Assembly (NCBI GenBank): GCA_963727455.1
Contig: CAVSGG010000008.1
Coordinates: 438,377 to 502,376, forward strand
From: Candidatus Krumholzibacteriota bacterium
GTDB lineage: Bacteria > Krumholzibacteriota > Krumholzibacteriia > JAJRXK01
Reading direction: 5' to 3'
Length of the DNA stretch: 64,000 nucleotides
Made by a program: the position numbers and the translations under genes. Positions 23,589 to 62,160 of this stretch are shown in pieces. The notes under the pieces were generated by a model. That model ran no database searches. It was not told where the DNA came from and saw only the letters and a list, made by a program, of their open reading frames with translations. Every line of letters starts with the position of its first letter. Positions within the stretch are counted from its first letter, which is position 1.

Positions 23589-24184
23589 TCCTCCTCGCTG
23601 CGTCCCATGAAGGAGCAAAGCGGATTGTCGAGGAGGAAAGGGGAGGCGGGGAGTGATCGTGTGCTTCCCCGTGAGGGAGAGTTGTGCAGAGGATAAGCAG
23701 AGGGAGGCTTCCTCGCCCGCTCCCTGCTCGGGCAGAGCGAGTCCACGGTGGAAAGCTCGCGCTGCGAACGGACGCAGCCAACACCTCGAGGACCTACTGA
23801 TCCGCGCTGAACCCCTCTCGCACCCCACGGCACCAGTCACAGTTTCTCGCGCACATTCCTTGCTGCCGTCGCGTTTTTCAGGAGAAGCGCTCTCGCTGAG
23901 AGTGCCAGCGGTCTCGCTCTCACCCCCTCCGTCGTGGCGGGTGGGGTGCGGGGCCCTCGATCCGGAGGTTTCGGCGAACGGCCTGAGCATGCGCCCCTGA
24001 GAACTGGGGTGAAACTCGGCTGGTACCTCCTTGATTCCCAACGGGGGCGACGCTCTTTGCGCCAATTGCCGCCGTCGGCCCGGGGGCCCCGAACATTTCT
24101 CCCGAGCGTCCGCGAGATGCCGTGACTCGCGGGTGCCTAAGCTGCGGCTCAACCCACCTCCCGGGGTTGAGCCGCGCTCTTTTT
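23589..24184 (+). ncRNA. Candidate large structured RNA (~600 nt), family unknown
   Basis: Non-coding gap between divergent genes with many nested helices. G-U pairs favour the + strand. Ends in a + strand intrinsic terminator with no + gene upstream. Confidence 0.5.
24144..24184 (+). terminator. Rho-independent terminator
   Basis: Perfect 12-bp stem GCGGCTCAACCC/GGGTTGAGCCGC followed by GCTCTTTTT. Confidence 0.75.
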
Positions 24185-24193
24185 CGCTCCCTT

Positions 24194-24221
24194 TTGCCAG
24201 CATTGAATCGTGTGCTATCTT
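24194..24221 (+). promoter_or_regulatory. Sigma70-like promoter of the aldehyde dehydrogenase gene
   Basis: TTGCCA-N16-TATCTT with a TG extended -10. Confidence 0.5.
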
Positions 24222-24284
24222 GGCCGCCGGACATCCGCGGTCCGGTCACACATATCTGTCTCTTTTTCTCAGGGGTAGCTTCCG

Positions 24285-43543: not shown

Positions 43544-43578
43544 AAAAAAAGGCGAGATGAGCTTCGCTCACCCCGCCT
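43544..43578 (-). terminator. Rho-independent terminator
   Basis: On - strand AGGCGGGGTGAGC-GAA-GCTCATCTCGCCT followed by a T run; G-U pairs fit the - strand. Confidence 0.85.
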
Positions 43579-44014
43579 CCAATCTAGATTCCAGTTCTGT
43601 TAGAAGAACACCCCCCTGCCCGTTCATGCTCAAGTTGCGCTACCGGTGGGAGCCGAAGCCGATGAAGCGCACAGGGGGGTGAAGAAGGTGCGCGGGCCGT
43701 ACCCAACTTGGAGACCTTTGATCATGAGGATTGGTCCCAGTACCTCATGAGGAATGCCAAGTGCTCGTGGCGTGAATGAGAATCCTCGCCACGCCCTGCG
43801 AGTGGTTCTCGCTGAGATGAGCCGACGGCGCCCGTGTGTCAGCTGCATCTCCAATCGCCACAAACTGGTCCGACCCGCACGTGGTCGCAAAAAACCTGGA
43901 CCGCGGTTTCCGCATGCGGCCGGGAGCGGTCGTCCCGGGGAAGCCAATTGTTCCGCTTCCGCTACCAAGAGAATCCAATCTCGAAGGCGCCGCAACGACT
44001 TCTCTAGAATGGAA
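43544..44014 (-). ncRNA. Candidate large structured RNA (~470 nt), family unknown
   Basis: 670-bp non-coding gap with a chain of hairpins, complementary 5' and 3' ends, TAGAAT upstream and a terminator downstream. Confidence 0.5.
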
Positions 44015-44066
44015 TGATTCTACCCAGTCCGGTTCGTAAAGGTCCGAACAGCCTTTCGTAGCGGGC

Positions 44067-46850
44067 TCAACGAGGCAAATTGGGTGCAAGGAGCACCGCG
44101 TTCAGAAGCAGGCGCGTGGTCACCGGCCAGATGCCCCGGAAGGTGGGATCTTCGGCGAAAAGAACGAGCTTACCCTTTTCGTGTTTCTCGCAGATGAGGT
44201 AGGGGCGTCCCGCCAGAGCTTCGACGGTCTCCGGCCAGGCGAAGCCGGCGATCAGAGGTTCGTGCGCCGCGTAATTCACTACGACTTGGTCCTCCTCGCC
44301 CGCGCGCAGCTCCCGTCCACGCAAGACGAGAGCGGAACACGGCCCCTGGGCGCCGTAGCACAGGAAGTGGTAGGGAGCCCTCTCCAACCGAAAGATGGCG
44401 CCCGGGGTGCTAGGAGGCGCATCTGGGGGCTCTGTGCCATTGGGACCCAACTGGGAGGGATTCTCCTCGCCGGGAGAAGTCTCGGCGTTCTTTTCGTTCG
44501 GATAAGGACTAGATTCCGCCGTGGGGGCCTCCTGGGAAGACAGTGCTGGCTCCACCTCGTCCTCCCCCGGCCGGGTGTCTTGGGCCAGCGATACGGACAA
44601 CCAGTCCGGCACCTCCATGAGGGCCTCTCCCGCCTTGCCCAGTGCCACCAGAATCCCCCCTTGATCCACCCAGCTGCGCAGGTCCGGCAGGATCGGCGCG
44701 TGCTTCTCGAGATCCGGAAGGATGATCACGTCCACCTCACGCAAACGAAGTTCCTCGAGTTCGTCGAGGAGCACCGTCGAGCACTCGATTCCCATGTGCT
44801 CGCGCAAAATCCACAGCACGCTGCCCAGGCTGGTCGGGCGCACTCCGGGGCCGCCGGCGACCACGATACGCGGCTGGCGCAAGCGCACCACCCTTTCGCT
44901 CCCCAGGGATGGCCCCTCGTCGCTCCATGCACTGCTGACAGGGACGACTTCCACTCCCGTATCGCGTGCGACATCGTCGATCAGGGAATCCAGAACGACT
45001 GTGGAGTCCTGGACCGAACGCTTGAGCACCAGACTACCCGCGGGAAAGTCCTCCTTGCCTTGTCGAAACGCGTCGCGGGCGAGAGAGACCTTCGCGCCTT
45101 TGCGCCAGAGTGAAGCCAGAGCGGCACAAGTCGCGTTGTCTCGATCGGGGATGAGGTAGCCGTAGGACGCGTTCGCATGTTCGATTGGCGGGCTCGGCGG
45201 TACGTCCTCTGCTGTCACGCGAACGCTGGTCACGTCCAGACTTTTCGAGCTGTAATAGGTGGTCAGTCCAAAAGCGAGCGGCAGACTCCAAGCCGTCACG
45301 TCGTAGAAACGATCGCCAAGTCCGGCGCGGTGGCGTTCGGTCTCTTCTTTCAGAAAGGGCTCGTCCATGGCCTGTTCCCAAACCAGGAGGTTTTGCAGGA
45401 GCGGATAGGCCGCTTGCTCCAGAACGATCCGGTAGCTCCCGGCTGAGAAGTTGTGCTCGTTTTCCTCTCCGCTCTCTTGGGTCGAGACTCGCGCCCGGAA
45501 GCCGCGCTCGCTTTGTAGGACCTGTACTCCTTGCATGCTCAAGAGCCGCGCCAGGCGTCGCGTCTCGGCAGGAGCTTTATCGAGATCGAAGAGAATTTCT
45601 CTGGCATCGACCTTAGCCGCCCTACGCAAGGCCTCTTCGTGAAAGCGCCGGGAATACTGGAGCAGTTCCTGGCTCTTGGCGGCGCTCGTGCGGCAGCTCG
45701 TCAACGCCGCGAGGAAATGGTGCGCAACCGCATCGCGGTAGCTGCGGATGGCTCCGCTGCCGTCTTCGATCCGTAGCCCGTGCGAACTCGCTTGCTCGAA
45801 GGTCATCCCGATCGCGCCCTGCAAACTGGGCCAGGAGTCTCCGTAACCGGGATAGAAGAGATCGAATTGCTCGCGCACGAAGTAGTCGAGTCCGGCGGCA
45901 TCGAAAGCCGAGGCATTGGCCCTTCCGTAGAGCTCGAGCCAGGACTGCAGCGCTTCGGGAAGCAGCGGATTGTGCGGCAGAGCCGAAGGCGGAAAGAAGT
46001 AGGTGGAGGAAGGCCGCATCTCGTGCAGGTCCAAAAAGACCTGGGGGTGCCAGCGTAGAAAGGCGGCGACCCTCGCCCTGCTCTCCGGCTGGGTAAGGAA
46101 GGCCCAGTCGCGGTTGAGGTCGAAGAGGTTGTGGTTGTAGCGGCCGGACGGCCAGAGCTCTGTGTGCTCGATGGCGTAGGGATAGGGGTCGGGGCCTCCC
46201 GACTGGCGCGTGAAGGATCGAAGGTGCTGCAAGAATCGGCCGCGCCCGTCGGGATTCTGACAGAGATCGATGAGTACCACGATGTGTTCGAGGAGCTCTT
46301 GCGTCGCCTCGCTGCGATCAGCCGCCAAGTGGTATGCCAGGAATAGTCCCGCGTCGCAGCCGCTGGCCTCGTCCCCGTGGATCCCGCAAGCGACCCACAC
46401 CGCGGGCAGGGGCGCGGGGGCTTTATTGCTTCGCGCAGCCGCGCTCGCAGAAAGATCCAGCGCGGCCCGTGACTGCAGCAGACCGTCCTGCCGCTTCGAA
46501 GCGCTGATCGCCAAGAGGAGCAATGGATCGCCCTCGACGCTGCGACCGATCTCGTGCACGCTCACCCGATCGCTCTCTTTGGCCAAGAGCCGCGCGTAGG
46601 CGATGAGTTCTTCGACCGAAGCCGGTCTCTTCCCCAACGGGTGCCCCAAGAGCGAAGCGGGCGTGGGCAGGGCCGGATCGTAGTCCGCTCCTTTCACCCA
46701 CTGTGTCGCAGGGGCCTCCGCCGTGAACCCGGCCGCTACTCTTGGCGCAAACAGTGCGCCGAGCAGCAGGAAGAGACTGAAGCCAAGCAACTCCAAGGAG
46801 CGCTGGCCAAGCTTTGCCTGGTATTTTTCAAGGGAAGAACGCAATGCCAC
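44067..46850 (-). CDS. Secreted M14 zinc carboxypeptidase-family protein
   Basis: IHGDE, NPDG, RYNH..DLNRD, DLHEM, FEQ, YDVTAWSLP. Confidence 0.9.
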   Translation of the reverse strand: MALRSSLEKYQAKLGQRSLELLGFSLFLLLGALFAPRVAAGFTAEAPATQWVKGADYDPALPTPASLLGHPLGKRPASVEELIAYARLLAKESDRVSVHEIGRSVEGDPLLLLAISASKRQDGLLQSRAALDLSASAAARSNKAPAPLPAVWVACGIHGDEASGCDAGLFLAYHLAADRSEATQELLEHIVVLIDLCQNPDGRGRFLQHLRSFTRQSGGPDPYPYAIEHTELWPSGRYNHNLFDLNRDWAFLTQPESRARVAAFLRWHPQVFLDLHEMRPSSTYFFPPSALPHNPLLPEALQSWLELYGRANASAFDAAGLDYFVREQFDLFYPGYGDSWPSLQGAIGMTFEQASSHGLRIEDGSGAIRSYRDAVAHHFLAALTSCRTSAAKSQELLQYSRRFHEEALRRAAKVDAREILFDLDKAPAETRRLARLLSMQGVQVLQSERGFRARVSTQESGEENEHNFSAGSYRIVLEQAAYPLLQNLLVWEQAMDEPFLKEETERHRAGLGDRFYDVTAWSLPLAFGLTTYYSSKSLDVTSVRVTAEDVPPSPPIEHANASYGYLIPDRDNATCAALASLWRKGAKVSLARDAFRQGKEDFPAGSLVLKRSVQDSTVVLDSLIDDVARDTGVEVVPVSSAWSDEGPSLGSERVVRLRQPRIVVAGGPGVRPTSLGSVLWILREHMGIECSTVLLDELEELRLREVDVIILPDLEKHAPILPDLRSWVDQGGILVALGKAGEALMEVPDWLSVSLAQDTRPGEDEVEPALSSQEAPTAESSPYPNEKNAETSPGEENPSQLGPNGTEPPDAPPSTPGAIFRLERAPYHFLCYGAQGPCSALVLRGRELRAGEEDQVVVNYAAHEPLIAGFAWPETVEALAGRPYLICEKHEKGKLVLFAEDPTFRGIWPVTTRLLLNAVLLAPNLPR

Positions 46851-60324: not shown

Positions 60325-61626
60325 ATGCCTCCCTCTCTGGGAGGCATTTTGCCAGGTACCGCGGTTGCATCTTTCGTTGGGATCTACCGGCCCCGCCATC
60401 CTGAGCGCACCGCGCTCTACCAGCTTTTCGACCGCCACGGCGAGCGTTTCTTCCGCGAGTACGACGAGCGCTTCGAGCACCAATACGGCCCCTTGCGCGC
60501 CGTTGTGCGACGCGTGGTTGACCAGTATCTCGAGTGCGGTCGCCCCGAGGGGGGCTTCGCGCGCATCCGCTGCCCGAACTGTCGCGGCGAGCACCTGCTG
60601 GCGTTCAGCTGCCAGACCCGCAACTTCTGTCCGAGCTGCCAGGCCAAGCGCGCTGCTCTTTTTGCTGAACATCTGGTCGAGGAGGTGCTCAGCCCGGTTG
60701 CCCACCGCCACGTGGTTTTCACGGTACCCAAGGTGATCCGTGGATTGTTCGAGCGGGAGCGCCGACTGTTGTCGATCCTTCCGCGCTGCGCGCACCGGGC
60801 GATCCAGCGCCTGCTGTGCGAGGCGGTCGATGACCCCCGGGCGCAGGTGGGCACCATCGCATCGATCCAGACCTTCGGCAGCTACGCCGCGAACTTCCAT
60901 CCCCACGTCCACGCGCTGATCACCGAGGGAGCGTTCCACCTACCGCGCCGCGGCGATCCATGGTTCGAGCGCGTCGAGTGGTGGGATCAAAAGACGCTGA
61001 CTGAGCTGTTCCGACGGCTGGTGCTTAAAGAGCTGCGTCGCGCGAAGCGCCTGCGCGAGGAGACCGAGGCCATGCTCTTGTCATGGCAGCACTCGGGCTT
61101 TGGGGTCCATGCCGGCGAGCCGGTGCTGCCCGATCACACCGAGCGCCAGGAGCATCTCGCGCGATACATCACCCGCGCGCCAATCCGGCTCGACGCGATC
61201 ACCCCGCTCGACGCCAAGCAGGTTCGGGTTCGGACACCGATCCATCCCAGCACCGGCCAACGTGATCTCGAACTCGATGTTCTGGAGATGATCCGCCGTC
61301 TGTGCGCCCAGATCCCCGCGCCACGGCAGCATTTGGTCAGATACTACGGCTGGTACTCGCACCGGGCCCGAGGGGCAAGAGCCAACCCCCAGGACGCGAC
61401 GATCGCCAGGGCACCGTCCACTGCGCGCAGCCGCAGCTGGGCACGCCTGCTGCGCAGGATCTTCGAGCTGGACCCCATGCTCTGCCCGCAGTGCGGGGGA
61501 ACCATGAAGATCGTGTCGGTGATCGACGAAGCAGCGGTGGTGGACCGGATTCTCAGACACCTGGTACGGATCGGCGGCAACGACCCGCACGAGGGGACGG
61601 CGCAACGAGCTCCGCCAAGAGCATGA
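60325..61626 (+). CDS. IS91-family (HUH, rolling-circle) transposase with an N-terminal Zn-binding domain
   Basis: CG..GFARIRCPNC..AFSCQTRNFCPSC, HVVFTVP, HPHVHAL (HUH), SGFGVH, LARYITR, VRYYG, WARLLRRIFELDPMLCPQCGG. Confidence 0.93.
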   Translation: MPPSLGGILPGTAVASFVGIYRPRHPERTALYQLFDRHGERFFREYDERFEHQYGPLRAVVRRVVDQYLECGRPEGGFARIRCPNCRGEHLLAFSCQTRNFCPSCQAKRAALFAEHLVEEVLSPVAHRHVVFTVPKVIRGLFERERRLLSILPRCAHRAIQRLLCEAVDDPRAQVGTIASIQTFGSYAANFHPHVHALITEGAFHLPRRGDPWFERVEWWDQKTLTELFRRLVLKELRRAKRLREETEAMLLSWQHSGFGVHAGEPVLPDHTERQEHLARYITRAPIRLDAITPLDAKQVRVRTPIHPSTGQRDLELDVLEMIRRLCAQIPAPRQHLVRYYGWYSHRARGARANPQDATIARAPSTARSRSWARLLRRIFELDPMLCPQCGGTMKIVSVIDEAAVVDRILRHLVRIGGNDPHEGTAQRAPPRA

Positions 61627-61818
61627 ACCCCTACCAGTACCCTCAGCCTCCCGACGAACGCGCAAGGGCACGAGCGTCGGGAGTACGGTGTGCCCAAGGA
61701 TAGGTGGAAGCCGCTCAGGTGGGCGCATGTCGGGCGAACAGAGTTGCGGTAGGGTGAGTCGGGGATCGACAATCAATCCTCATCGTGATCATCGCACCGA
61801 GAACACAGCGCAAAGAGC

Positions 61819-61880
61819 ACCCGTTCTGAAGTTCGGTGCTCGCTTTTCAGCTAAAGCGCCGTATACAATCCACTATCCGT
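61819..61880 (+). repeat. Right copy of the 62-bp direct repeat; probable oriIS end
   Basis: Lies about 200 bp downstream of the transposase stop; ends TATACAATCCACTATCC-GT. Confidence 0.85.
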
Positions 61881-62160
61881 ATTCCCTTGCTCCGACTCAG
61901 AACCTTCTGCTTGCGCCCGGAGCGTACTACTTGAATACTCGCCATCGGCGGTCTCCTTGATCTGGTGGATGTTTTTGCTACACATCCACTTCTACCAGAT
62001 TTCGGAGCCGCCTCCTATTTCAACTAAACTTGGCACATCCTCACGGGATAGGCTTGGAATAGAAATTCACATTTCCCTTCGGAAGGAGGCAAGGCTCCAC
62101 TGGAAAGCCAACCATCTATAGCCGGTAACTTCCAAGGTACCCACCGAATCATCGCTGCAT

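Follow-up and report, generated by a model that had tools for sequence, protein, structure and literature searches.

Among the structured noncoding RNAs of bacteria, OLE, GOLLD, ROOL, HEARO and raiA are large orphans, and the protein-sequestering sRNAs of the CsrB/RsmZ type carry repeated loop motifs of the form A(N)GGA. The locus described here contains a genuine, previously undescribed family of structured RNAs. It was found on the − strand of a 64-kb stretch of DNA from a Krumholzibacteriota genome, which is called the window in the following. To our knowledge, Krumholzibacteriota are known from metagenomes only, and a full-text search of the literature yielded no paper on noncoding RNA in Krumholzibacteriota and none that joins the CYTH domain with a structured noncoding RNA motif.

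The element occupies most of a 523-nt stretch (43544-44066) that lies between the end of a gene for an M14 peptidase and the far end of an intrinsic terminator (Table 1). A sequence-only reading of this region had proposed a structured noncoding RNA of about 470 nt, and all motifs it had listed were found at their positions on the − strand. The minimum free energy of positions 43544-44022 on this strand is −212.6 kcal/mol, compared with −178.6 ± 6.0 kcal/mol for 100 dinucleotide shuffles, none of which was as good (z = −5.64). The + strand of the same positions folds less well (z = −3.99). The GC content is 0.54-0.60 within the element, compared with 0.63-0.68 in the flanking genes. Together with the covariation in 18 homologous sequences presented below, these values bear out the proposal of a structured RNA on the − strand.

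Table 1. Positions of the features of the element and of its upstream neighbour in the window
Feature	Position	Strand	Remarks
M14 peptidase gene, upstream neighbour	44067..46850	−	927 aa; Pfam Peptidase_M14, E 3.9e-21
−10-like box TAGAAT	44017..44022	−	in conserved block GGTAGAAT/GGTAGAAC; putative promoter element, or the RNA's 5′ edge
5′ peripheral domain	43881..44016	−	type-a specific; several hairpins, including GGAAGC/GCTTCC and CCGGGA/TCCCGG; conserved in 5/5 type-a lineages
Conserved core	43690..43880	−	191 nt; covariance models R1 and R2
Loop L3	43827..43837	−	ACACGGGCGCC; contains the palindrome GGCGCC
Loop L4	43790..43797	−	AGGGCGTG
Loop L9 motif	43733..43738	−	GGGACC; tip of P7-P9
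3′ peripheral hairpin P10	43609..43681	−	CACCCCCCTG...CAGGGGGGTG; type-a specific
Intrinsic terminator and T-run	43544..43580 (hairpin 43580-43548)	−	terminator scan; kept in 5/5 type-a lineages

A blastn search of 61 genomes with the 523-nt stretch gave matches in four of them, the window's own counted. Apart from the window itself, the matches lie on a second contig of the same assembly (C9, 90% identity) and in three of the four same-genus genomes (83%, 75% and 73%), and there was no match beyond the genus among the 61 genomes. The C9 copy is most simply explained as an orthologue from a co-binned relative and not as a paralogue, because the segments C8:451922-498684 and C9:181374-228961 are collinear over ~47 kb, with 85-88% identity, and because the assembly, which is 88.85% complete, is rated as 6.68% contaminated. 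It appears to hold two related genomes, and its copy numbers need care. Between the C8 and C9 versions, the element is 90% identical, compared with ~76% in the flanks.

Two covariance models extended the search. R1, a model of the central 191 nt, retrieved full-length core matches from nine of the ten genomes of the taxonomic family, and R2, built from 13 sequences, retrieved the core from all ten. With strict filters and just 17 candidates scored per genome, R2 found the core in none of 141 genomes of the phylum's other families, which were sampled at the class and then at the phylum level. With the filters off, it found nothing beside the peptidase orthologues in 11 genomes of other families. 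In addition, 185,579 species genomes as well as metagenomes were pre-searched with a three-block pattern of the invariant loops. The pattern occurs at nine places in the species genomes (eight in records of Krumholzibacteri- or “uncultured bacterium” MAGs and one in Streptomyces), in 30 metagenome stretches, 11 of which match R2, and at no place in viral contigs; phage and plasmid collections contain no match to the element either. The Streptomyces place and the other 19 metagenome stretches were rejected as RNA copies, as R2 gives no match and they look like chance occurrences in GC-rich sequence. As far as searched, the RNA family thus appears to be confined to one family of Krumholzibacteriia.

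The copies are found in three genomic contexts, designated types a, b and c. Type a is the ~470-nt form, in which a ~135-nt 5′ domain precedes the core and the hairpin P10 and the terminator follow it. This form is carried by the window, C9 and three further genomes (G001, G002 and G004), with the M14 peptidase gene immediately upstream. Type c, found in the genera g2-g4 and on two metagenome contigs, is located between the orthologous peptidase gene and a gene with a CYTH domain (Pfam E 6.6e-15); a convergent Dus gene comes next. The CYTH gene is co-directional and starts 28-100 nt beyond the core at each of the seven distinct type-c loci. One of these, on a metagenome contig (L049), has a 14-bp hairpin and UUUUU ~10-50 nt past the core and before the CYTH start, which is absent from the other six. 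Copies of type b are dispersed, follow a DUF2275/DUF4252 gene pair and are not linked to the peptidase gene; a convergent gene has its stop codon 13 nt beyond the core. They are present on contig C6 of the window's assembly, in G001, G003 and G004, and on two metagenome contigs. The C6 copy (L030, G000:C6:106207-106386, + strand), which scores 127.5 bits with R2, is paralogous and has the same core sequence as the G003 copy. A type-a and a type-b copy occur together in G001 and in G004, whose contamination ratings are low.

The peptidase gene is the sole conserved neighbour of the type-a and type-c RNAs. Its orthologues, which end in ...FRGxWEGLxRLLLNxxLLGP..., are found directly upstream of the core in G005-G009 and the two metagenome contigs, and an orthologue is also upstream of the core in G001, G002 and G004. 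The linkage to polysaccharide genes that the sequence-only reading had considered is not conserved. A co-directional gene for a hexapeptide acetyltransferase follows the terminator in the window, G001 and G002, and a convergent Dus gene comes right after it in G004. In the latter genome (L010, G004:C1, 1853-3025, − strand), the Dus frame enters the 3′ domain of the RNA and the terminator by ~90 nt, resulting in a tail-to-tail overlap. With the G008 protein as query, no CYTH gene was detected in the window's genome, which is 88.85% complete; in the window's genus, the RNA is kept and duplicated. The position of the RNA is syntenic, not mobile.

An alignment of the five type-a lineages showed that conservation begins exactly at TAGAAT, i.e. 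at GGTAGAAT, and stops at the terminator. Similar boxes (TAGACT, TAGTAT, TAAACT and TAATCT) lie upstream of the type-c and type-b copies, and −10-like TAnnnT boxes are present upstream of all three context types. A consensus scan for sigma-70 promoters found no full or canonical promoter at the element. From its position and conservation, TAGAAT may be a promoter element of the RNA's own gene, in which case the 5′ end of the RNA would lie a few bases downstream of it and the 3′ end would be formed by the terminator. The −10-like box follows the stop codon of the peptidase gene after only ~16 nt in G004 and G002. Because of this short gap and the lack of a canonical promoter, processing from the peptidase mRNA is a possible alternative to an own promoter.

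The terminator had been predicted, and the terminator scan recovered it as GGAGGCGGGGTGAGCG-AAG-CTCATCTCGCCTTT followed by a T-run, i.e. as a 15-bp stem with eight G-C pairs and a 3-nt loop. It is retained in all five type-a lineages, and its stem shows compensating changes. The 5′ peripheral domain is missing from types b and c, and its helix CCGGGA/TCCCGG shows a double change from A-U to G-C in two type-a sequences. In the hairpin P10, the inner motif CGGCTCCC-N-CCGGTAGC is invariant, and the stem has several double changes, e.g. from C-G to U-A and from A-U to G-C in two of the five sequences.

The helices that had been proposed from the single sequence fared differently in the comparison. 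Five of the ten show compensatory changes, i.e. CCGGGA/TCCCGG, GAGATGCAGCTGAC/GTCGGCTCATCTC (P3), CTCGC/GCGAG (P4), ATGAGG/CCTCAT (P7-9) and CACCCCCCTG/CAGGGGGGTG (P10). Two, GGAAGC/GCTTCC and GCGG-AAA-CCGC, are conserved with little or no covariation, and three are unsupported: CGTGGCG/CGCCACG clashes with the covarying helices P2 and P4, GGTCC/GGACC is incompatible with P1 and disrupted in two genomes (G004 and G002), and the helix said to pair the ends of the RNA is fully paired (14/14) in the window, drops to 10/14, 10/14, 9/12 and 4/12 pairs in the four remaining lineages, lacks double changes and gives duplex z-scores of −2.6, −0.8, −0.6, −1.9 and +0.2. The covarying helices P1, P2 and P5/6 had not been listed. 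The proposed ~470-nt unit holds as a folded RNA that ends in a terminator, while the unit conserved in all contexts is the 191-nt core.

In the core, P1 closes two arms; P2 bears the hairpins P3 and P4, and P5-P9 form one long hairpin. Among 18 distinct core sequences, 91.3% of the cells form standard pairs and double changes are found in 57 of the 65 base pairs, both values being derived from an alignment that was fitted to the covariance model. None of 500 shuffles came up to these values, and sliding the partners by 1-3 columns reduced the pairing to 35-42%. When the sequences were aligned with MAFFT only, without fitting to the model, RNAalifold recovered P1, P3, P4 and P9, and 29 of the 35 pairs had double changes.

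The terminal loops behave differently from the stems. In L3, CGGGCGCCG is invariant in all 18 distinct sequences and ACAC is present in 17; in L4, GGGCGTG is present in 16 and missing from the copies of G007 and G006; and GGGACC in L9 is invariant in all 18. In contrast to these invariant or nearly invariant loops, the junctions of the core differ in sequence and length among the 18 sequences. UCCC is found at the P1 boundary in 10 of the 12 type-b and type-c sequences. A pseudoknot between the GGGACC loop and UCCC just 3′ of P1 was considered and rejected; UCCC is better explained as an extension of P1, in which it would pair with a purine run (GAGGGG, GAGGGA or GGGG) just 5′ of P1.

Traces of expression were sought in public RNA data. 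Contigs of 110-220 nt from four metatranscriptome runs of four studies fall wholly inside 43637-43929, with 90-99% identity, and one of them spans 43767-43929; they stem from relatives whose flanks may be too diverged to match, they reveal neither strand nor transcript ends, and DNA may be present in RNA libraries, so that they are a weak hint of expression. Parts of the stretch that have no cover in the four RNA runs are no evidence of silence. Most of the stretch is contained in DNA runs from wetland and salt-marsh metagenomes.

The sequence-only reading had left open whether the element is a stand-alone RNA or a cis-acting attenuator. With moderate confidence, we favour a stand-alone gene for a highly structured noncoding RNA of ~470 nt that acts in trans. 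This is favoured because the RNA has been retained and duplicated in a genus in which CYTH was not found, because it is more conserved than its neighbours and because it gains peripheral domains. It is also favoured because neither the type-b copies, with their convergent gene, nor the type-a copy of G004, with its convergent Dus gene, have a co-directional gene downstream. The position of type c before CYTH at seven of seven loci, with a terminator-like hairpin at one of the seven, looks like that of a 5′ leader and counts against the stand-alone view.

If the RNA acts in trans, its functional heart would be the 191-nt core. The P2 arm bears two hairpins tipped by ACACGGGCGCC and (A/U)GGGCGUG, respectively, and the arm formed by P5-P9 is tipped by GGGACC. 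The fold could thus be a scaffold that shows G-rich loops to a partner. We infer this because the stems vary and yet stay paired, the loops are fixed and the junctions are variable; as invariant loops cannot show covariation, loop presentation is a candidate mechanism. Possible partners are an RNA-binding protein, a further nucleic acid and, via the palindromic GGCGCC, a second copy of the RNA. A ligand pocket based on the junctions is not favoured.

An unlikely interpretation, though the first to be weighed against a stand-alone RNA, is that the element is a cis-regulatory leader, either riboswitch-like or a protein-dependent attenuator, which would control CYTH in type c and, via the terminator, the acetyltransferase or polysaccharide genes in the window. 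The location of a riboswitch, i.e. the 5′ leader of a co-directional gene, is seen in all seven type-c copies, and the acetyltransferase genes of the window, G001 and G002 are also co-directional; it is not seen in type b and in the type-a copy of G004, and the persistence of the RNA in a genus where CYTH was not found argues against such a role as well. Attenuation would be compatible with a possible pairing between the 5′ strands of P10 (C-rich) and of the terminator (G-rich). The energies of this pairing are −11.8 to −18.9 kcal/mol within species and −9.7 to −15.2 kcal/mol across species, a comparison that includes only two divergent lineages. Pairing within species is therefore no better than across species, and P10 itself is far more stable (R1xR2 duplex energy of −21 to −25.5 kcal/mol within species). 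A terminator/antiterminator switch is not favoured, as no species-specific complementarity was seen in these lineages. Furthermore, P1 and the terminator are ~115 nt apart, with an entire additional domain between them, and the conserved nucleotides are in the terminal loops and not in the junctions.

Less probable still is that the element is a processed, stable fragment of the 3′-UTR of the M14 peptidase mRNA, with a role tied to the peptidase. In four genera, the peptidase is the conserved neighbour of types a and c, which would fit this, as would the very short distance to the stop codon in G004 and G002 and the lack of a canonical promoter. Against it are the type-b copies, which are unlinked to the peptidase, the lack of such an RNA downstream of the peptidase orthologues in the 11 genomes of other families, and the conservation of the TAnnnT box at the 5′ edge.

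It is very improbable that the element is a small protein-coding gene or a non-functional remnant, e.g. the debris of a mobile element. The − strand contains ORFs of 121 and 114 codons, and neither product has a Pfam match. The 121-aa frame is cut to 83, 60 or 59 codons or is absent in the homologues, and the alignment of the homologues is rich in 1-nt gaps and contains no common ORF. From end to end, the invariant motifs span 100-107 nt, with all residues modulo 3 represented. A coding gene was therefore rejected, in agreement with the earlier statement that the region has no credible ORF. The compensatory changes argue for selection on RNA pairing, and the absence of matches in phages, plasmids and viral contigs as well as the syntenic position speak against a remnant.

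The search for described RNA families was likewise negative. The 4227 covariance models of Rfam 15 gave no match at gathering thresholds, neither on the whole 64-kb window nor on the eight loci with type-b and type-c copies. When E-values of up to 10 were allowed, only chance-level matches were obtained (snoU82P, E 0.21; sR20, E 9.5; two plant miRNA families; and RsmV, with 15.1 bits compared with a gathering score of 100). In line with the sequence-only reading, which had recognised no family, the element matches no described one, and its conservation with covariation is strong. A search of the window's assembly (G000, 88.85% complete) gave no match to RNase P RNA (RF00010), most likely because of an assembly gap. 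That the element is a diverged housekeeping RNA (RNase P RNA, 6S, SRP RNA or tmRNA) or another described family below the Rfam thresholds is effectively refuted: beyond the missing RF00010, only a 9-nt identity with the RNase P RNA of relatives (AACAGAACT) points in this direction, whereas each of 25 relatives carries a normal RNase P RNA (273-334 bits) at a locus other than that of the element, blastn against the RNase P RNAs of three relatives gave scattered short matches and no collinear similarity, and 6S (RF00013), SRP RNA (RF00169) and tmRNA (RF00023) are present elsewhere in three of four, four of four and four of four tested genomes of the family f1, respectively.

Two more speculative ideas, to which we would give a rather low probability, concern the origin and the action of the core. 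It might represent a new class of ligand- or protein-sensing aptamers that ancestrally controlled the CYTH (triphosphate-tunnel) gene and was later, in the window's genus, freed, duplicated and enlarged to ~470 nt. Alternatively, the RNA might self-assemble via its invariant GGCGCC loop; self-assembly has reportedly been described recently for other large bacterial RNAs.

Two other features of the window were recorded. A second conserved non-coding stretch is located at 23834-24284 on the + strand, with a terminator-like hairpin near 24140-24185. It is probably the region that the sequence-only reading had listed as its first candidate for a large noncoding RNA. Its similarity is 87% to G001 (query bases 78-451), 80% to G004 and 78% to G002 (about bases 82-342); there was no match in G003 or G008 and none to Rfam in the window, and the stretch is unrelated to R2. 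Furthermore, the window contains a gene for an IS91-type transposase (60325-61626, + strand; Pfam Y2_Tnp and Zn_Tnp_IS91), and ~1.2 kb around it (~60668-61887) are present in at least eight copies on contig C9, with 89-99.8% identity.

The locus is a well-supported new family of structured RNAs; its covariation is unusually clean, and its three loop motifs are fixed or nearly so. It makes an evolutionary history visible, in which one syntenic locus lost its downstream gene, acquired peripheral domains and was duplicated. The narrow distribution and the orphan status limit its wider importance, and it offers a concrete target for annotation with covariance models and for a partner search.

A comparison with known systems places the RNA in the following way. 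It resembles the type A RNase P RNA (RF00010) in its size (350-450 nt), its multi-domain organisation and the failure to detect RF00010 elsewhere in an incomplete genome, but relatives have both RNAs at separate loci, and there is neither collinear similarity nor a cmscan match. With riboswitch and attenuator leaders it shares a structured element before a gene, i.e. CYTH in type c, and, in the window, a terminator before a co-directional gene. It differs from them in that conservation is concentrated in terminal loops, that several copies have no co-directional downstream gene, that the candidate antiterminator pairing shows no species-specific signal and that no Rfam riboswitch matches.

The likeness to the CsrB/RsmZ type lies in the combination of varying stems with fixed loop motifs and in the presence of several G-rich loops per molecule. 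However, the loops are GGGCGCC, GGGCGUG and GGGACC and not A(N)GGA, just three of them are present in a fixed multi-way junction, and a partner protein is only postulated; the sole match of the Rsm type is the chance-level one to RsmV. OLE, GOLLD, ROOL, HEARO and raiA show no match to the RNA in sequence or structure, as Rfam gave only chance-level matches; compared with them, its range is far narrower, comprising one family of Krumholzibacteriia, and its core is just ~190 nt long, with peripheral domains that are specific for the type. It nevertheless resembles this category in being an orphan, lineage-restricted and multi-branched RNA of several hundred nucleotides with strong covariation, and probably in forming a discrete unit that ends in a terminator and has a putative start of its own.
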